Shown one piece after another: positions 6,866 through 61,986 of a stretch of 64,000 nt of DNA. The position numbers and the translations under genes were made by a program. The notes beneath the pieces are model-generated. The model made no database searches and was not told the origin of the DNA. It worked only from the letters and a program-made list of their open reading frames with translations. Position 1 is the stretch's first letter. Every line of letters starts with the position of its first letter. The stretch spans positions 1 to 64,000 of IMG/VR virus record IMGVR_UViG_3300032038_000007; one strand, given 5' to 3'. Origin of the DNA: a virus (taxonomy: Duplodnaviria; Caudoviricetes).

Positions 6866-7627
6866 ATGTATATCATGGTCATGGACACGGAAACCACGGG
6901 ACTGGAAAAGTGCTTCTGCTACGACTTCGGCTATGTCATCGTTGACACGGATACTCATGAAATCGTCAAGCGTGAGCACTACATCGTGGAGCAGATTTGG
7001 CACAATCTCGCCCTGTTTGAGAGTGCTTACTACAAAGAGAAGCGCCCCAACTATGTCCAGCTGATGCGGGCGCGGAAGGCCACCATGGATAAGTGGGGAT
7101 ACATCATGCGCAATGCGGCGCGTGATATTCGTGAGTATCATATCACTGATGCCTACGCCTACAATAGCACTTTTGACGACAAGGTTATCTCCTACAATTG
7201 CGATTGGTACAAGTGCATCAATCCTTTTGATACCGTGGCAATCCATGATATTTGGGGCTATGCTTCTCAGTTCATCACAAACTCCCCTGACTATCGCGCC
7301 TATTGCGAAGAGCACTCCCGCTTTACTGATACTGGAAATTACAGCGGGAGCGCGGAAAGTGTCTATCAGTTCATTTCCCTTGAGTTCGACTTTGTAGAAG
7401 ACCACATGGGGCTGTATGACAGCGAAATCGAAGCCGCGATTCTCCTCTACTGTCTGGACAAGGGCGCGAAATTGGGCGAAGACTACAAGGTGAATAAGGT
7501 GCTGCCCAGGGTGCAGGAGAAGCCCTTCACCATCAAAGTCAACGGTCAGGTGATTTATACCGGATTGTACATCAAGAGTTACAAGCGCAATGATGTTTAT
7601 AATTTCACAACTATCGAGGGGAATTAA
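6866..7627 (+). CDS. DEDDh 3'-5' exonuclease (paralog of 4911-5594)
   Basis: MDTETTG, AYNSTFD, EDHMGLYD; shares SxYYxEKxPxY and DFxEEH-like blocks with 4911-5594. Confidence 0.85.
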   Translation: MYIMVMDTETTGLEKCFCYDFGYVIVDTDTHEIVKREHYIVEQIWHNLALFESAYYKEKRPNYVQLMRARKATMDKWGYIMRNAARDIREYHITDAYAYNSTFDDKVISYNCDWYKCINPFDTVAIHDIWGYASQFITNSPDYRAYCEEHSRFTDTGNYSGSAESVYQFISLEFDFVEDHMGLYDSEIEAAILLYCLDKGAKLGEDYKVNKVLPRVQEKPFTIKVNGQVIYTGLYIKSYKRNDVYNFTTIEGN

Positions 7628-7687
7628 TCCCCTCTAACCAAGTTAGATGTTCAACATCTAACTTTCTCTTTATAAAAAAATGGCGCT

Positions 7688-8215
7688 TTACAGCGCCAAA
7701 CAGGCATAGTCAACAATCACCGGGCGGCCACCGCGCAGACCGAAGTTCCTCCAATGAACATCACGAACATGGTCAAAAAGATACCTACATTCCTCATCAC
7801 TCAGATAGTTTTCAATTATACGGGAATCCTCGGCTTCCTCATCCCAATCCGGGGGGATATTCCTGACACGAGGCATCACGTACGCCACATACCCATTGCA
7901 CTCAATGCGCTCAATTGCGGCAAAAAGGTAACCAAATCCGTCCTTCTTTGCCGTCTCATACATTTTCACTTCTTCCTCACAGCCACCAAACATCATCCCT
8001 TCATTGCCATAGTCAATCTTAATGGCATAATCGGAAGTAATGAACACAATCCGGGTAAGACCATGGTCAACCATCACGTGCCTATGGTATTGCTGATTGA
8101 ACAGTTCAACCGCACGTTCAAACTCATATACCTTATGGCACCCCACGATATACGGGAGAAGCATGGAGAAGCATTTGAGAGCGCGCACCTGATAACTGGA
8201 CTTCATTCGTAACAC
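7688..8215 (-). CDS. Minimal protein-kinase-like (PKL/APH-fold) protein
   Basis: GLTRIVF, YAIKID, EVKMY, DVHWRNFG, PVIVDY motifs; minus-strand promoter next to palindrome 8271; true start may be ATG 8206. Confidence 0.75.
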   Translation of the reverse strand: MLRMKSSYQVRALKCFSMLLPYIVGCHKVYEFERAVELFNQQYHRHVMVDHGLTRIVFITSDYAIKIDYGNEGMMFGGCEEEVKMYETAKKDGFGYLFAAIERIECNGYVAYVMPRVRNIPPDWDEEAEDSRIIENYLSDEECRYLFDHVRDVHWRNFGLRGGRPVIVDYACLAL

Positions 8216-8299
8216 TTCCTTTCTACAATTGGAAGTATATCATAAGACCGTACCTTTGTCAACACGGAACTTAGATGTTCAACATCTAATTTGACTCTT

Positions 8300-8750
8300 G
8301 TCAAATATTTGACTAACTATAATCCCGCAACGCCATAGCCAAAATTTTCCATCCTTGTCAAATATTTGACTTATAATATCAACGAATCCAGGAGCTGGAA
8401 AAAGCTGGAAATTGGGAGCTGGGAACTATCAACCGCAGGTACCCTAAAGCTGGGACACCGCCCGCAGCTGCACCATCCCGACCGGCTTGTCAAATATTTG
8501 ACATAGGTTACATTTATAGCTCACAGTCAAATATATAACTAGCAGCTGGATATCTAAGTGACCGTACAGCGGGTGGGAGCTGGGCCACCCGCAGCTGGCA
8601 GCCTCACCCCTGTTCACATTACAGATATGCTGTCAAATACTTGACAGCGCCGGTGGAGGAGTGTATAAGCTGGACTTGTAAAATTTTTACAGCTGGCAAT
8701 AAAAAAAGAGCTGGAAGTTACTCTTCCAACTCATCCGCCTATTTAGCTGC
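8300..8750. repeat. Cluster of GTCAAATATTTGAC palindromes and same-strand AGCTG(G) repeats
   Basis: Palindromes at 8300, 8357, 8489 and 8632 (1 mismatch); about 12 AGCTG between 8393 and 8750. Confidence 0.85.
8701..8732 (-). terminator. Intrinsic terminator of the helicase-like gene
   Basis: Minus strand GAGTTGGAAG-AGTAA-CTTCCAGCTC-T7. Confidence 0.75.
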
Positions 8751-10121
8751 GACCAACTTAAAAAAATTATTATCCGCTATAACCTCAGCTTCTACCCAAT
8801 TGCCAGTAATACGATAGCAGTACACAGCATTCGCACCAGGTGTAGGACGCTTACGAGCTTTCTCTACCTTATATCCTACAGATGGCAGTACGTCCTACAG
8901 CTTATTCCAACTCATAATACGCGCTTGTCGTTTCGTCGCCTACTACTCATCAGCACTAATTTCGGGGACCGCAAGATATTCTGCGAGCCCACGGCACTAC
9001 TAAACGGTCAGCCACTTATCCTTGTACTCAGCTGGGACTTCCGCAATCAACGTCTTAACATGTCGCTAATATGGGAACGTCTAACGAGCTGCTTGTATAC
9101 GATCAGCCTAGTAAAACGAATCAACAATAAGATGCTTGAATCGCTCATCGCTAATGCTAAATCCGCGCTCAAACGCCTTAGTAATAACGACAAAATCATA
9201 TTCAGGCGGCACCATATGCAACGTTCTAATCCAATTAATTACTCGCAGCTGCTCCTCATTTAGAGGCCAATCCGCATTCTGTTCAGAGTGTATCTCAATA
9301 GCGTTAAAGCCCTATTGATTTGCCGCCCGCACAATACTCTGATTATGCTCTATCGAGGGCGAATAACACCAATAGGCAATATTTGGAAAAGGCTAAAGCT
9401 CATGTATGTGGTCGATTACATTTCTAAAGTACACATCACTAGCAGCTCGGAAACCAGCTTCAATTTTTCCTTTATTGCTAGCCTACACAAGACTAGAATA
9501 ATATTGGCGCGCACGCTCAGGAGTGGCGGATAACCCAATGCACAGTATCCTCCCCTCATTTACTATGCGCTCCCAATATCCAAGAAGTATGAGAGGCATG
9601 TAAGCTTTCTTCGTAGAGTGCTACTGTATGACAGCAAGGATCTCATTATTGGTACTTTCTGCGCTGGCAAAATCGCTGGTACGAGCTTTCTAAAAAGCTG
9701 CCGCCGCAAAATCAAATATGCTATCGCACTCATCCCAGCATATAACATCTATGGAGCTGAGAAAATCTGAGTTTCTCTTTAGGATACGCATACCAAAACC
9801 TTGATAGCACATTATACCTATTTTATTGGTATCTTCTGCCGACCAGCTGCTCTCACTCTATTCCCATAACTCATCGGCGTCGCAGCACATATCCGGGTAC
9901 TACTATATTATATCGTTTTTAAGGAACGTAGTATCTGTAAGGAACAAAATACGCCGCGGCTGATGGTCACGTGTAAACTGTACCAAATTGTTAACGGCCC
10001 AGTAAGTCTTCCCAGTCCTGACGCCGCAATCTAGTATGTTGTAATGGCCGCGCGAAAATTTTAATTCTCCAGTCTACTAAAGGTCAGTGACGGTTACAGG
10101 AGCGATTTTATCACTACTCAT
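8718..10121 (-). CDS. SF2 helicase-like protein, 467 aa with TAG=Gln (absent from ORF track)
   Basis: GAGGTGAGG SD; manual translation gives Walker A CGVRTGKT, Walker B CWDECD, motif III GLSAT and motif VI-like IQAAR; about 19 in-frame TAG and no TAA/TGA until 8718. Confidence 0.88.
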
Positions 10122-10141
10122 TTCTTCCTCACCTCACTATA

Positions 10142-10179
10142 ATTATATCATGGTATTTATTCTGTGTCAAATATTTGAC
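10142..10179 (-). promoter_or_regulatory. Consensus sigma-A promoter of the helicase-like gene; its -35 overlaps a GTCAAATATTTGAC palindrome
   Basis: TTGACA(10170-10165)-N17-TATAAT(10147-10142); palindrome 10166-10179. Confidence 0.8.
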
Positions 10180-10880
10180 AGAGAAAAACATTAAAAGTAA
10201 CATACTAAATGCTACATAATAATAATATTAACTATACAAAAATTGTAGTCACTTGAACTGTGTCATTTTTTGAATACTGCCCCCCCCCCCCTATATAGTA
10301 TTCAAAAAATAACACACATTTATAACTATAAAAAAATTATAGTTAAAATCCTATATTATATATATAGTAAATATTACGAGCAGTGCGCGTCAGCGCACTG
10401 CGAGTAATATTTACGCCGGCGAAGCCGCGAAGCGGCTTCGTGGGATCTGGTCTAATAACTAGTTAAATAAAAAATTTAATAAATTAAAAATTATTAAATT
10501 AATTAAAATTATATTAAAAAATTATTTTAAATATTTAATAATTATTAATATAATTATAATACAATTGTAATACTTTTGTAATATGTTGTAATTTGTTGTC
10601 AAATATTTGACAAAAGTTTGTGGAGAAATTTTGTAGTGAATAATACATTTTTAACTTTTGTAAGAAAAAATAAAAGTTAAATAGTTGACAAATGGTCAAA
10701 AATGTGACCACACCCATCTATTCATCCACTCATGGTCATTTTTATCCACATTTTTTCACCACACCCCACCCCATAGTCTATAATTTTTTCCGCCCATTAT
10801 TGGTATGGCTACCCGCTTTCCTTTCCTTTCTTTTACTATTTTACGATGTACCCGTATAGCTCCCATACACACCCTTTTTC
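10180..10880. other. Very AT-rich non-coding region with inverted repeats and a C12 run (origin or terminus candidate)
   Basis: Inverted repeat TTTTTTGAATACT...AGTATTCAAAAAA around poly-C at about 10280-10291; GC hairpins at about 10369-10440; palindrome at 10598; almost pure A/T at 10463-10560. Confidence 0.55.
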
Positions 10881-10940
10881 TTGACTTTTTTAAATTTTCT
10901 TGTTATAATAAATATAGAAACTGAGAGGAGGCTCAAGGTA

Positions 10941-11648
10941 ATGAACGATGCTTTTAAGTACTTCAGCAATGTGATGGATAAGCTGCTCGACAGATCTCCT
11001 GTTCTGCGTACTTACTTCCAGCATCCTTACAGTCTTACCGACTACATTGAATACCACGATGTGACGGTCTTCTTTGGAGCCACTCGCGGTTGCCTTTATA
11101 CCTACGACTACGACTATGTCGCTAAGTTTGACGTGGAGGAAGACTCTCTGGGCGGCAGCTGCTGTGAGCGAGAAGTAGAAGCTTACAATGCGGCGGTGCG
11201 CTATGGTCTTGATAAGTGTTTTACCTCTGCGACCTATCTTGGTACCTATGAGCGCGAAGTGACTGCTTATAGCTTTGAAAATATGGGCGATTGCTGCGAA
11301 GAATGCGATGAAGCGTTTCTGCGGATTGCTGAAGAGCGCGGTCTTGAAATGCATAACTACGTAATTTCAATTCCGTTGTATGGGTATGAGAAGGCTTCTG
11401 AAGCTGACATTTCATTTCCGAAAACCGAAGCCGATAGGAAGTATCTTGCCGACTCCAAAAGTCCCTTAACCCAGAAGGATATTGAGGTTGCGGCAACGTT
11501 TCTGGAATATTATGGTAAGGAAATGTATGAAGCACTGACACAGTTTTGCATTGATTATGAGATCAATGATTTGCACAATGGGAATATTGGTAGTGTTGAG
11601 GGTAGGCCGGTGATTATTGATTATAGTGGATATTTTATGGATATGTAA
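10941..11648 (+). CDS. Protein-kinase-like (PKL/APH-fold) protein
   Basis: GATRGC, YVAKFD, EVEAY, DLHNGNIG, PVIIDY; AGGAGG SD; promoter at 10881. Confidence 0.8.
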   Translation: MNDAFKYFSNVMDKLLDRSPVLRTYFQHPYSLTDYIEYHDVTVFFGATRGCLYTYDYDYVAKFDVEEDSLGGSCCEREVEAYNAAVRYGLDKCFTSATYLGTYEREVTAYSFENMGDCCEECDEAFLRIAEERGLEMHNYVISIPLYGYEKASEADISFPKTEADRKYLADSKSPLTQKDIEVAATFLEYYGKEMYEALTQFCIDYEINDLHNGNIGSVEGRPVIIDYSGYFMDM

Positions 11649-15308: not shown

Positions 15309-15506
15309 ATGTCAGAAACAAACGAATACACCATTACCCCAATCACTGTCCGCCATAAGCTTTCGCCGCAATATGACCGCGAAACAGTTGCTGATGCTCT
15401 CTTTCTCTGTCTTGAAGACTACCTTTGCAAGCACGGCCTCCTCACCATTACCGAGGAAGGTGACGAACTCGTTATCACTATGTTTGCGGCAAAGCCAAAT
15501 ATTTGA
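15309..15506 (+). CDS. Hypothetical protein
   Basis: AAGGAG SD. Confidence 0.7.
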   Translation: MSETNEYTITPITVRHKLSPQYDRETVADALFLCLEDYLCKHGLLTITEEGDELVITMFAAKPNI

Positions 15507-55582: not shown

Positions 55583-55993
55583 ATGACATTAACCGAATTA
55601 GCTCGTAAACTCCGCCCACTGATTGAAAAAGCCGCGCTTTCGTTAGATGATACAGACGCGCTTGAAGCAGTAGAATTATATCCACGTTGGTCAGGAAAAG
55701 GCGTTGATTATATTAAAGATCGACGGGTATCATTTAACAATGTTTTATATAGAGTATTGCAATCGCATACTTCACAAGAAACTTGGATGCCAGATGTAAC
55801 GCCAAGCCTATTTGCAAAGGTATTAATTCCAGATCCAGATGTTATTCCAGATTGGGAATAGCCAGATAGCACCAATCCATATATGAAAGGTGATAAAGTA
55901 AGATTCGATAATAAGATTTATGAATCTGCAATTGATAATAATATTTGGTCACCTACTGCATATCCGGCAGGCTGGATCGAAATACCAGAGTAA
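55583..55993 (+). CDS. Carbohydrate-binding (CBM5/12-like) protein (1 TAG=Gln)
   Basis: LYRVLQSHTSQETWMP...WE(Q)PDSTNPYMKGDKV..NIWSP..YPAGW. Confidence 0.8.
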
Positions 55994-56091
55994 AATATTT
56001 GACTTTTTTAAAAAATTCTTATATAATATATATAGTGATGAGGGAAAGGAACCTGAATCACTAAAATAAAAAAATAAGGAGAGGACCTTAT

Positions 56092-56804: not shown

Positions 56805-56894
56805 TGGGGCGTAGTTCAATGGCAGAACACCGGTCTCTAAAACCGTTATATCCCTCTGAAGGAGGTGGTCTGGGTTCGAGTCCCAGCGCCCTAG
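56805..56894 (+). tRNA. Amber suppressor tRNA (anticodon CUA), inferred Gln; Trp-like body with 23-nt variable arm
   Basis: Acceptor TGGGGCG/CGCCCTA plus G73; D-arm GTTC/GAAC; CGGT-CT-CTA-AA-ACCG (anticodon 56837-56839); T-arm CTGGG-TTCGAGT-CCCAG. Confidence 0.9.
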
Positions 56895-56943
56895 CTTACT
56901 CTATTAAAATAAAAATAATATGGAGCGTTTATCGCTCCACTAC

Positions 56944-61311: not shown

Positions 61312-61399
61312 GCAGATGTGGCTGAGTGGTCGAAAGCAGCGGTTTGCTAAACCGTCGTACTTAATAGTACCGAAGGTTCAAATCCTTCCGTCTGCGCCA
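61312..61399 (+). tRNA. tRNA-Ser(GCU)
   Basis: GCGGT-TTGCTAA-ACCGT; long variable arm; GCCA end. Confidence 0.93.
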
Positions 61400-61446
61400 A
61401 CAACTCTTGCCGTGTATATAATCTATAAGAAAAGGTGAAAATAAAT

Positions 61447-61986
61447 ATGAATGAACCAAGACTAAAGATTCTTCCCCCGTGGACTATTCTAGTAAGAAAG
61501 CTAGAAGCGCTATTTGATGGCGACCCTCAGATTGCTTTTAATGTTGACTTTAGTGGTGAGCATCCTGCTGTTGTTCTTGCTTGTAACAATGGAGATAAGA
61601 TTGCGGCCCTAAGCCAGATTCTACCAGATGAAGTGAACTTTGGAAATGTAACACTAAAGATTCTGATTGATGGCGAACCAAGCAACCGTGCCTTTACTAG
61701 TAAGGTTGAACTATTTGATACTGCTTTTGCTAAGAATCCTGCTTATGCTTATTCTGTTTGCCCCGCAGAAGAGGGATACCAGTGGATTGGTACTACTTAT
61801 GTTGTCTTTAATAATTGCGTAGTGCAGTTCGCGGCTGATAATCTAAATGATTGCCACGGTGTTATTAGTACCCTATATGAGACCATTGCTGATGAGCTTC
61901 TAACTGGCCCCGCTACTGAGGGTGTATTCTTTAACACTAATGTTGAGCGCGCGAACCTTGGTCATCCTCTAGGCGAGTGGCCGTAA
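61447..61986 (+). CDS. Hypothetical protein
   Basis: AAGGTG SD; about 179-aa open frame with biased codon usage. Confidence 0.8.
   Translation: MNEPRLKILPPWTILVRKLEALFDGDPQIAFNVDFSGEHPAVVLACNNGDKIAALSQILPDEVNFGNVTLKILIDGEPSNRAFTSKVELFDTAFAKNPAYAYSVCPAEEGYQWIGTTYVVFNNCVVQFAADNLNDCHGVISTLYETIADELLTGPATEGVFFNTNVERANLGHPLGEWP

Follow-up and report, generated by a model that had tools for sequence, protein, structure and literature searches.

The window, the whole stretch of DNA analysed here, comprises positions 1-64,000 of a 166.6-kb phage genome, and all positions are given in its numbering. Near its left end, a minus-strand frame with helicase motifs stands behind a perfect host-type promoter and is crossed by many TAG codons. 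The locus raises three questions, namely whether this frame is a gene, when its protein would be made, and on which DNA it would act.

Reading frame and predicted fold

The preliminary description, made from the sequence, had proposed a 467-aa minus-strand frame with Walker, SAT and QAAR motifs and a basic C-terminal region. With TAG read as Gln, the ORF listing gave exactly this, as a single ORF. The gene and the elements that bear on its expression are as follows.

8718..10121, minus strand: SF2 helicase-like gene of 467 codons, with 19 TAG read as Gln and stop codon TAA, encoding two RecA-like domains and a C-terminal domain of ~110 aa
10124..10135, minus strand: Shine-Dalgarno-like GAGGTGAGGAAG directly upstream of the ATG, as read from the sequence
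10142..10170, minus strand: consensus sigma-70 promoter TTGACA-17-TATAAT with extended -10 TG, matching at 12/12 positions; the genome has 11 such perfect sites
56805..56895, plus strand: tRNA with anticodon CUA, a predicted suppressor, with a sigma-70-type promoter upstream at 55999-56027

In this translation, the recoded codons are 15, 16, 73, 74, 88, 144, 167, 213, 243, 270, 338, 347, 352, 374, 375, 393, 394, 409, and 461. The 30 Gln codons of the gene comprise 19 TAG, 5 CAA, and 6 CAG, which makes exact the earlier estimate of about 19 in about 30. The four TAG-TAG pairs are also as described, with the first at codons 15-16 and the others at 73-74, 374-375, and 393-394. They account for 4 of the 6 Gln-Gln dipeptides versus ~2.4 expected at a TAG share of 63%, an excess that is not significant by this simple arithmetic.

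Across 44 distinct homologs with 356 TAG cells, Gln makes up 40% of the other sequences at TAG columns, compared with 3.3% in the background. At codon 347, in motif VI, the column contains 14 TAG and 30 Gln and is thus an invariant Gln. Between the gene and its counterpart in a relative of 96% protein identity, there are 128 synonymous and 18 non-synonymous codon differences, and the seven TAG changes are all (7/7) exchanges with CAG or CAA. The frame is interrupted solely by TAG, with TAA, TGA, and frameshifts absent, and hundreds of full-length homologs were found. Non-Gln residues or frame disruptions at the TAG positions of homologs had been named as signs of decay; instead, Gln is enriched there, and the frame itself has no frameshift. 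A decaying pseudogene broken by stop codons, as the fragments of at most 61 aa that table 11 alone yields over 8718-10121 would suggest, has practically no chance and is refuted because TAG stands on the invariant Gln of motif VI, TAG changes lead to CAG or CAA, and the synonymous to non-synonymous ratio is 128:18, and it is further opposed by the intact frame, the full-length homologs, the tRNA-CUA of the genome, and the TAG codons throughout its late genes. Collectively, these comparisons indicate that the helicase gene is intact and under purifying selection and that its TAG codons are read as glutamine.

For annotation, this means that standard-code gene calling breaks the helicase into fragments. 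Many short fragment entries are present among the database matches, which is consistent with such splitting. Separately, one metatranscriptome run contained a small share of the sequence words, which is not counted as expression evidence.

The predicted protein contains GVRTGKT (residues 33-39), DECD (130-133), SAT (198-200), QAARQ (343-347), and a basic KARKRP stretch (421-426). Motifs I, II, III, and VI (GVRTGKT, DECD, SAT, and QAARQ..R) are invariant or nearly so across 121 homologs. Pfam ResIII (PF04851) matches residues 36-137 with 25.6 bits (cut-off 22.5), and Pfam Helicase_C (PF00271) gives no match to the helicase at E up to 1. One distant relative shows a sub-threshold Helicase_C match, and the second RecA fold is present in the AF2 model. 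This model, the check that the preliminary description had called for, has a mean pLDDT of 78.5 and consists of two tandem RecA-like domains, which support an SF2 core. Foldseek matches it with probability 1.0 to the cores of NS3, DEAD, DEAH, and RecQ, and VIA-align with Z 11-12 to SF2 helicase cores; these structural matches fix no subfamily, and the class assignment stops at the superfamily. Neither the single protein nor a profile of 121 sequences matched anything in PDB by sequence, a search for longer fused forms found none, PADLOC gave no match, and NCBIfam returned noise alone, including CyRepA1 plasmid replication at E = 0.068. Collectively, the motifs and the model indicate that the product of 8718..10121 is a superfamily 2 helicase/ATPase-like protein with predicted unwinding activity. 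For the C-terminal 112 aa, almost all structural matches are winged-helix DNA binders, albeit weak ones (best Z 4.4; Foldseek E of at least 0.3; model pLDDT 69), so this domain of ~110 aa may be a winged helix.

Repeats, hairpin, and palindrome around the gene

The non-coding DNA on both sides of the helicase contains the following features.

8300..8645: palindrome copies interleaved with the CCAGCT array, exact at 8300, 8357, and 8489 and degenerate at 8526 and 8632
8393..8714, minus strand: polar array of 10 CCAGCT copies (AGCTGG on the plus strand) with additional CAGCTG variants, all in helicase orientation
8698..8732, minus strand: intrinsic terminator with a 10-bp stem and a T run, which overlaps the helicase stop codon and holds the first CCAGCT copy in its stem
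10165..10180: 16-bp palindrome TGTCAAATATTTGACA, with the -35 box as its right half
10259..10316: 20-bp inverted repeat around a homopolymer run of 12 nt at 10280-10291, read as G on the helicase strand
10357..10424, plus strand: long hairpin, AT-rich in the lower and GC-rich in the upper part of its stem, capped by GCGTCAGC; ssDNA fold of -21.2 kcal/mol, z -6.2
10415..10450, plus strand: GC-rich island with two GCGAAGC mini-hairpin words (10419, 10427) in a gap of 25-33% GC
10598..10708: palindrome copies at the distal end of the 5' gap, exact at 10598 and degenerate at 10676 and 10695

Outside this array, CCAGCT forms no cluster in the non-coding DNA of the genome. A second cluster, at 154331 in genome G000, was found to be coding. 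Beyond the helicase locus, genome G005 has no such cluster and genome G004 has one, which alternates in strand. Among 49 loci, an array of CCAGCT/CAGCTT lies 3' of the helicase stop in ~33, always on the strand of the gene, and is absent upstream.

On the 5' side, the hairpin at 10357..10424 keeps its place, shape, and cap in relatives, while its stem sequences vary. For ten hairpins from helicase loci, the ssDNA folds have z values of -5.2 to -10.5 and a common architecture; these are single-sequence folds, and RNAalifold on a roughly cut, poor alignment gave no structure. The homopolymer run recurs with 7-14 nt at an equal distance from the helicase in several relatives. Moreover, counts of GCGN(N)AGC are 68 on the strand opposite the helicase and 13 on the helicase strand, with ~2 expected. 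All cap variants (GAA, GTA, GGA, GCA, GTTA, and GTCA) fit GCGN(N)AGC on the opposite strand, so a DNA hairpin is favoured and an RNA with UUCG tetraloops disfavoured, an RNA role being still possible. Rfam over 7600-11000 gave nothing credible, and the neighbouring small genes have no informative family match. An N4-type hairpin promoter, served by an injected RNA polymerase, was unsupported, as the 5990-aa ORF encodes a tape-measure protein and matches no polymerase.

The helicase is the sole gene on its strand here, with a gap of 500-900 bp on either side, and array and hairpin are kept down to ~57% protein identity. This layout of gaps, polar array, and hairpin has survived rearrangements of the DNA around it; relatives at a greater distance (E 1e-36 to 1e-88) are without it. 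Collectively, the locus comparisons indicate that the helicase is the centre of a conserved module, with a 3' polar CCAGCT array and a 5' AT-rich gap containing a capped hairpin, and this central position of the gene is what is new here. Physical linkage alone could hold repeats next to the helicase gene.

The perfect sigma-70 promoter, which resembles those of the early and middle genes of the phage, and the palindrome that overlaps its -35 and recurs on both sides of the gene had both been seen correctly in the preliminary description. GTCAAATATTTGAC has five exact copies in the genome (8300, 8357, 8489, 10166, and 10598), all at the helicase locus, and degenerate ones at 8526, 8632, 10676, and 10695; shuffled sequence gives 0.34 matches at up to 2 mismatches. 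The exact palindrome is limited to this phage and its 96% relative and is missing from several relatives in which both the helicase gene and the CCAGCT array persist. At 15503, 55999, and 80523, near-copies lie across the -35 of unrelated promoters, a pattern that suggests one regulator common to a class of promoters. On these sequence grounds, the palindrome is a weak candidate for the binding site of the helicase itself, and the autoregulation once proposed through it is not supported; the array and the mini-hairpin-capped hairpin, neither of which enters the earlier interpretation, are far better conserved.

Several features at the helicase are origin-like: the gap of 25-33% GC, the CCAGCT array, the palindromes, and a stable hairpin beside a replication-type gene. 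In 3 of 5 genomes, the cumulative GC skew has its minimum no more than 1.5 kb from the helicase ATG; in the other two, where a 33-kb block is inverted, the minimum is off the helicase locus. The maximum is always 100-106 kb away. Because the inverted gene block displaces the minimum, GC skew appears to track transcription; it follows gene direction and is weaker origin evidence than it first appeared. The only exact DnaA box of the genome, TTATCCACA, is at 10742; DnaA boxes form no cluster in the genome, and in the homolog gaps they occur at about chance frequency. Another origin candidate in the same genome is a 1.3-kb stretch at 154.9-156.2 kb with 17-20% GC.

TAG load and the timing of translation

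The helicase contains 4.07 TAG per 100 codons versus 0.45 in the 3143-aa tail gene, a difference in the direction described earlier. The genome maximum is found elsewhere, in a RuvC-like gene (4.49) and a putative 195-aa ORF (6.15). Counted per gene with TAG as Gln, as had been suggested, TAG makes up 63% of helicase Gln codons versus 27% in all other ORFs of the genome (p = 2.7e-5) and 33% in the other TAG-bearing ORFs (p = 8e-4). The neighbours of the helicase are TAG-free or nearly so, again as described. In the replisome, the genes for the DnaB-like helicase, primase, DNA polymerase, topoisomerase II, ligase, and RecJ have 0 TAG. The RuvC-like resolvase has 11 TAG in 245 codons, a GIY-YIG endonuclease has 9, and the methyltransferases of the phage also bear TAG.

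Whether homologs share this density had been asked at the outset, and they do: the helicase is TAG-denser than its flanking ORFs in 34 of 36 recoded loci, with loads of 2.18 versus 0.51 per 100 codons. The first TAG stands at a median codon of 14.5. In standard-code relatives, whose portal gene is without TAG, the helicase is also without TAG. These close relatives, with the same helicase and 0 TAG, provide a natural control.

The early-type promoter combined with 19 TAG codons implies that full-length protein is expected only after the genetic-code switch of the phage. The earlier proposal that the product would need efficient amber suppression is consistent with the host promoter, the 19 TAG, and the TAG-free neighbours. 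The mRNA could be made from the start of infection; ribosomes would halt after 14 residues until the phage tRNA-CUA outcompetes release factor 1. The full-length yield would be ~s^19, where s is the read-through efficiency, giving 2e-6 at 0.5, 0.14 at 0.9, and 0.83 at 0.99. With a yield following roughly the 19th power of read-through, the helicase would be late-acting despite its promoter.

It is quite possible, although we lean against it, that the TAG load is passive rather than an evolved timer. AT-biased CAG to TAG mutation would then proceed in any gene unneeded before suppression, the helicase would simply be one such gene, and the number of TAG codons would itself carry no regulatory meaning. 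The poorly conserved and quickly turning over TAG positions, with seven TAG and CAR exchanges at 96% protein identity, fit such drift, as do the range of 1 to 25 TAG per helicase among recoded relatives and the pooled share of TAG in helicase Gln of these relatives (43%), which is close to the 41-44% of the giant tail gene of G000 and G004. One relative has 0 TAG in its helicase and in-frame TAG in two neighbours, and that phage may or may not be recoded. Drift alone accounts less well for the 63% share in this helicase, above that of other TAG-bearing ORFs, and for the TAG within codons 1-20 in 22 of 36 recoded genes. Moreover, drift or not, the outcome would be the same, with no protein before suppression.

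Role of the helicase and comparison with known systems

The reading that we favour, tentatively and with belief and doubt nearly balanced, is that the helicase is late-acting and translation-gated and works on the adjacent sites of an origin-like region, in a logic nearer to T4 UvsW than to an initiator. The flanking module would then be a DNA control region resembling an origin, and the helicase would come to it late, possibly to shut down or restructure what early initiation has formed and to favour a late mode linked to recombination. Its partners would be the RuvC-like resolvase, which is just as dense in TAG, and the methyltransferases that bear TAG, and the gate would be the genetic code in place of a late promoter. 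Helicase, junction resolvase, methyltransferases, and homing endonuclease would make up a small group of DNA functions delayed in a similar manner, and the polar array with its capped hairpin may mark an origin in a large group of uncultured rumen phages. A bolder version is unlikely, in which helicase, polar array, and hairpin form a self-contained replication-control module where the protein binds or loads and switches replication from an early, origin-driven to a late mode, with the code change and not transcription as the clock; if so, some other timing control would run the same module in standard-code relatives.

Rather doubtful is a general, structure-recognising recombination or repair helicase that acts only late, in branch migration or fork regression as do T4 UvsW, T5 D10, and RecG, and for which the repeats and hairpins would belong to promoters, regulators, or an origin not specifically recognised by it. 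A gene alone between its gaps, with the same array and hairpin to ~57% identity despite rearrangements, is hard to reconcile with such a role, as is an array found nowhere else in G000 non-coding DNA or in G005, the single further cluster in G004 aside. In its favour, the SF2 core is generic and no specificity domain reaches significant scores, the RuvC-like resolvase has a similar TAG load, UvsW and D10 are SF2 proteins of this kind (PMC3016281, PMC5180179), and the flanking layout is missing in more distant relatives.

The preliminary description had seen in the protein a UL9-like initiator that binds GTCAAATATTTGAC, represses its own promoter, and starts replication once suppression is strong. 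We consider this improbable, even though an SF2 core is followed by a C-terminal domain that may bind DNA, the palindrome lies over the -35 with all five exact genomic copies flanking the gene, and the AT-rich 5' gap lies at the skew minimum. The Pfam scan gave ResIII only and no Herpes_ori_bp match, and the PDB sequence searches were empty. The palindrome is absent in several relatives with gene and array, and its near-copies sit at unrelated promoters. Furthermore, a sole initiator that is untranslatable early clashes with a wholly TAG-free replisome, and for this reason an initiator role fits poorly. What stands of the earlier interpretation is a real, conserved SF2 gene with TAG as Gln and a TAG pattern repeated in recoded relatives; UL9 family membership does not. 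The helicase resembles herpesvirus UL9 in its SF2 ATPase core, followed by a putative DNA-binding part, and in its proposed link to an origin. In contrast, UL9 acts early as an initiator and binds palindromic boxes, whereas here translation is predicted to be delayed and the conserved elements are direct repeats and a hairpin.

In phage P4, the alpha gene, like the helicase gene here, lies between two sets of cis sites (ori/crr iterons), and its C-terminal winged-helix domain binds the origin. This domain (1ka8) is among the weak structural matches to the helicase C-terminal domain, at Z 2.8, far below significance, and P4 alpha, unlike the helicase, is a primase with an SF3 helicase. For the hairpin, the closest parallel is the GCGNAGC / GCGNNAGC DNA mini-hairpin motifs at the ssDNA priming sites of phages G4, St-1, and alpha3 and of RSF1010 ssiA (PMC13037366). 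Here, too, the cap sequences fit the consensus, and do so on a single strand; the gap around them is AT-rich, and a primase is encoded by the phage. Those cases are ssDNA phages and a plasmid, however; the stem here is much longer and priming is putative.

Expressed from a late promoter, T4 UvsW unwinds R-loops at origins and carries out branch migration (PMC3016281), and it and T5 D10 are SF2 branch-migration helicases (PMC3016281, PMC5180179). The helicase would be held back, as UvsW is, while the replisome is early. Its gene also adjoins an origin-like region, as the UvsW gene lies ~0.9 kb from oriF, and, as in T4, its partner junction resolvase would be late. The gate of UvsW is a late promoter and not codons; what UvsW recognises is the structure of DNA, and an iteron array is absent. 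hhalign of the helicase with UvsW gives a probability of 3.7% over 101 columns in the motif I-II region only, and full-length profile similarity to the UvsW family was not found.

Finally, Borges et al. (bioRxiv 10.1101/2021.08.26.457843) described stop-codon recoding of TAG to Gln as a gate on late phage genes, with some gene families preferentially recoded. In their account, in-frame stops in a homing endonuclease within an early gene should delay it until late, and the recoding of replication genes is called only 'variable', with no helicase named. Like their phages, this one encodes its own tRNA-CUA and keeps early and replication genes in the standard code, with TAG in structural and lysis genes. 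Recoding has so far been argued to delay lysis and virion genes. In contrast, the gene predicted to be gated here encodes a helicase-like enzyme of DNA metabolism, stands behind a consensus host promoter alone among TAG-free early genes, and repeats this pattern over a clade of 160-190-kb rumen-type phages.

Recoded genome and the helicase-like gene

The complete phage genome (G000) is a single contig of 166,616 bp with overlapping ends and a GC content of 38.8%, and the window is its first 64 kb. Translation of TAG as glutamine gives long ORFs that terminate solely in TAA or TGA, including tail, portal, and terminase-like genes as well as a 5990-aa tape-measure protein. The phage is TAG-to-Gln recoded, of the type covered in the survey of Borges et al. 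(bioRxiv 10.1101/2021.08.26.457843). Its relatives were drawn from viral contigs in IMG/VR and from metagenome assemblies in ENA and Logan, one with a pig gut label; sequencing runs sharing words with the helicase stretch carry bovine or sheep gut labels, and the word shares are small. Two of the five complete genomes (G001 and G004, compared with G000, G002, and G005) have a ~33-kb block, composed mostly of tail genes, in inverted orientation; with respect to the remaining blocks, the helicase module retains its position and direction.

Features of the window and of the stretches of G000 beyond it (L053, L054)
8718-10121, minus strand: SF2 helicase-like gene
10170-10142: helicase promoter TTGACA-17-TATAAT with TG ahead of the -10 box, score 12/12
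56805-56895: tRNA with anticodon CUA
G000 109683-110420 (L053:5683-6420), plus strand: RuvC-like Holliday junction resolvase, 11 TAG in 245 codons
G000 119211-137183 (L053/L054): tape-measure ORF, 5990 codons, 152 TAG, matching tape-measure protein families

Under table 11, the helicase stretch yields only pieces of at most 61 aa. With TAG read as glutamine, it is one ORF of 467 codons, in which glutamine is encoded by 19 TAG, 6 CAG, and 5 CAA, with TAG-TAG pairs at codons 15-16, 73-74, 374-375, and 393-394. A GAGG-rich ribosome site lies downstream of the promoter, and the stop codon is overlapped by an intrinsic terminator. Every element of the preliminary description, which had read an amber-locked SF2 gene here, was found in the sequence, and the table-15 gene call and per-gene TAG fractions it had proposed agree with it: TAG supplies 63% of the helicase glutamine codons, versus 27% in all other ORFs (p = 2.7e-5) and 33% in other TAG-bearing ORFs (p = 8e-4). 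The density of 4.07 TAG per 100 codons is among the highest in the genome, being exceeded by the 245-aa RuvC-like gene (4.49) and by a 195-aa ORF from the tRNA region (6.15), itself unverified. The latter (61378-61965, minus strand) overlaps the tRNA cluster, carries TAG at 12 of its 13 glutamine codons, and had no match in a family search; recoding may be extreme here, or the ORF may be spurious.

The structure prediction suggested in the preliminary description was made with AlphaFold2 (121 sequences; mean pLDDT 78.5) and has two RecA-like domains. NS3, DEAD, DEAH, RecQ, and Snf2 cores matched it equally well with Foldseek and VIA-align (Z 11-12), so no single SF2 subfamily is singled out. 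Pfam detects ResIII alone, and the PHROGs label is 'DNA helicase'. Membership in the T4 UvsW family was not supported by profile comparison. Folded alone, the C-terminal 112 residues (pLDDT 69) give two helices followed by a beta hairpin whose wing is basic. Their matches are weak (Z ≤4.4) and nearly all to winged-helix DNA binders, including a winged helix of MCM and the origin-binding domain of P4, which makes a winged-helix DNA binder a lead only.

Helicase homologs number 469 in the clustered database, where the 120 best listed share 57-96% identity with the protein, and an exhaustive search matched 507 representative clusters; motifs I, II, III, and VI show little or no variation. We gathered 49 homologous loci, of which 44 are distinct, and the distinct set has 356 TAG cells. 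At TAG columns of the distinct loci, other sequences have glutamine in 40% of cases versus a background of 3.3%, and the codon 347 column within motif VI contains 30 glutamines and 14 TAG and no other state. Compared with the locus whose helicase shares 96% protein identity, 128 codon differences are synonymous and 18 change the residue, while all seven TAG-involving changes are TAG<->CAG or TAG<->CAA. The pseudogene reading is therefore ruled out: the non-glutamine residues or frame disruptions that such decay would leave at TAG sites did not appear.

The helicase TAG number ranges from 0 to 25 across relatives. In three relatives without helicase TAG, the portal gene is likewise TAG-free, and in two with 8 and 15 helicase TAG, the portal has 10 and 8; because the two genes agree, the helicase TAG load follows the code of the genome. 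In 36 distinct recoded loci, the pooled helicases contain 2.18 TAG per 100 codons (43% of glutamine), and the pooled flanking ORFs contain 0.51 (16%). In 34 of the 36, TAG density in the helicase exceeds that of its flanks, in line with the high density in homologs for which the preliminary description had proposed to look, and the median first TAG is at codon 14.5. Collectively, these data make the TAG load a family trait of the helicase.

TAG-free genes and genes probably withheld by the code

Both topoisomerase II subunits, the DnaB-like helicase, primase, RecJ-like exonuclease, 1334-aa DNA polymerase, and ligase have zero TAG in G000. Sigma-70-type promoters (TTGAC-17-TAnAAT) number 53, nearly all in early and middle regions with few in the structural blocks, and 11 are perfect, that of the helicase among them. 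The TAG-rich non-virion genes are the helicase, the RuvC-like resolvase, a GIY-YIG homing endonuclease (9 TAG; own promoter at 107307), and two putative Dam-like methyltransferase ORFs (7 and 5 TAG), which suggests that the gate spans a small DNA-processing set beyond lysis and virion genes. The resolvase closes the plus-strand block, immediately ahead of the gene-block convergence. A 446-aa ORF with 6 TAG (G000 150157-151497; L055:6157-7497) matches a phage sigma-factor family, with a C-terminus resembling HNH/endonuclease VII; the product could be a code-gated late transcription factor.

Assuming independent read-through of each TAG with efficiency s, full-length helicase is made with a yield of s^19, namely 2e-6 at s = 0.5, 0.14 at s = 0.9, and 0.83 at s = 0.99. 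Since the tape-measure gene with its 152 TAG needs s of ~0.98-0.99 for any product, giving a late read-through floor of ~0.98, we infer that the helicase gate must be fully open late in infection. The tail would be extraordinarily long if this single 5990-codon protein sets its length.

Non-coding module and palindrome

In relatives, the helicase is usually isolated on its strand, bounded by two non-coding gaps of ~500-900 bp, and has mostly small, opposite-strand neighbours. The 3' gap contains a one-directional CCAGCT array (variants TTCCAGCT, CCAGCTC, and GCAGCTT), with 10 copies in 320 bp in the window. At least four copies of a CAGCT word occur in ~33 of the 49 loci, invariably on the helicase strand and with essentially none upstream of the gene. 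The array is the only such cluster in the non-coding DNA of G000 and the sole one anywhere in the relative G005, while G004 has one more, strand-alternating cluster; it is also present in standard-code relatives.

The 5' gap has 25-35% GC with a GC-rich island 205-340 nt ahead of the ATG, where the words GCGNAGC or GCGNNAGC are found 68 times on the opposite strand to the gene and 13 times on its own (~2 expected). In ~20 loci, a long hairpin is topped by this mini-hairpin word; its stem is AT-rich below an internal loop and GC-rich above it. The sequence of the stem is wholly different among relatives, with cap, shape, and position retained, and ten such hairpins folded as ssDNA gave z-scores of -5.2 to -10.5. 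The caps agree with the 'mini-hairpin DNA' consensus described at the priming sites of G4-type phages and RSF1010 ssiA (PMC13037366). Additionally, several relatives have a 7-14 nt homopolymer run ~150-180 nt before the ATG, which in this phage is the loop of a 20-bp inverted repeat. In a distant relative (profile-search E-value 7e-88), a different array, of ~12 tandem ACGTTT/ACGATA hexamers, and GTCAAGTATTTGAC-type palindromes lie ~1.3 kb beyond the helicase gene (L081:2856-2927).

The palindrome GTCAAATATTTGAC does recur on both sides of the gene, as first described: all five exact copies in the genome flank the helicase, and four degenerate copies are close by. Its reading as the helicase's own autoregulatory site fared less well. 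The palindrome is much less conserved than the array and hairpin, being exact only in this phage and the 96% relative, with one-mismatch copies scattered in some others, and near-copies overlap -35 boxes at unrelated promoters, among them the one that precedes the suppressor tRNA. It resembles an operator shared by a class of promoters and not a site of the helicase's own. The promoter at 55990-56027, upstream of tRNA-Arg and tRNA-CUA, has a 13/14 match over its -35, and one regulator might act on both it and the helicase promoter.

Origin signals and proposed function

We rotated the five complete genomes to the helicase ATG and computed cumulative GC skew. The minimum lies within 1.5 kb of the ATG in three genomes and is displaced by the inverted 33-kb tail-gene block in the other two; the maximum lies 100-106 kb away in all five, at the gene-block convergence. 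As skew follows gene direction, this evidence for an origin at the helicase locus is suggestive only. DnaA boxes gave no origin support: the sole exact TTATCCACA in the 166-kb genome (10742-10750), at the distal end of the helicase 5' gap, is not conserved in relatives. A non-coding stretch of ~1.3 kb at G000 154850-156150 (L055:10850-12150) has the lowest GC of the genome (17-20%) and ~10 spaced copies of a AAATCCTAAAAC-like word, perhaps a further origin candidate or a repeat array of some kind.

Our proposal, to which we give a little under an even chance, is that the helicase stays untranslated through the genetic code and acts late on the neighbouring CCAGCT array and hairpin in an origin-like region. 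Its task there would be to remodel or silence the structures of early initiation and, with the TAG-dense resolvase, to support a late mode linked to recombination. Three rivals are weighed against this late-acting helicase. It may be a UL9-like initiator, as the preliminary description held, or a general structure-specific helicase unrelated to its neighbouring elements; alternatively, the TAG codons may have accumulated passively, with no value as a timer.

Recoding as a gate is an established principle, and individual families are already known to be recoded preferentially. The novelty lies in the gated target, a helicase-like DNA enzyme whose promoter is of the early type, in its recurrence across a clade that also supplies standard-code controls, and in the non-coding module conserved around it; literature searches not aimed specifically at the family or the module found no paper describing either. 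By analogy, the closest logic is that of T4 UvsW, an SF2 helicase expressed from a late promoter that unwinds origin R-loops and performs branch migration, in a phage whose endonuclease VII removes branches ahead of packaging (PMC3016281). The uvsW gene lies ~0.9 kb from oriF in T4.
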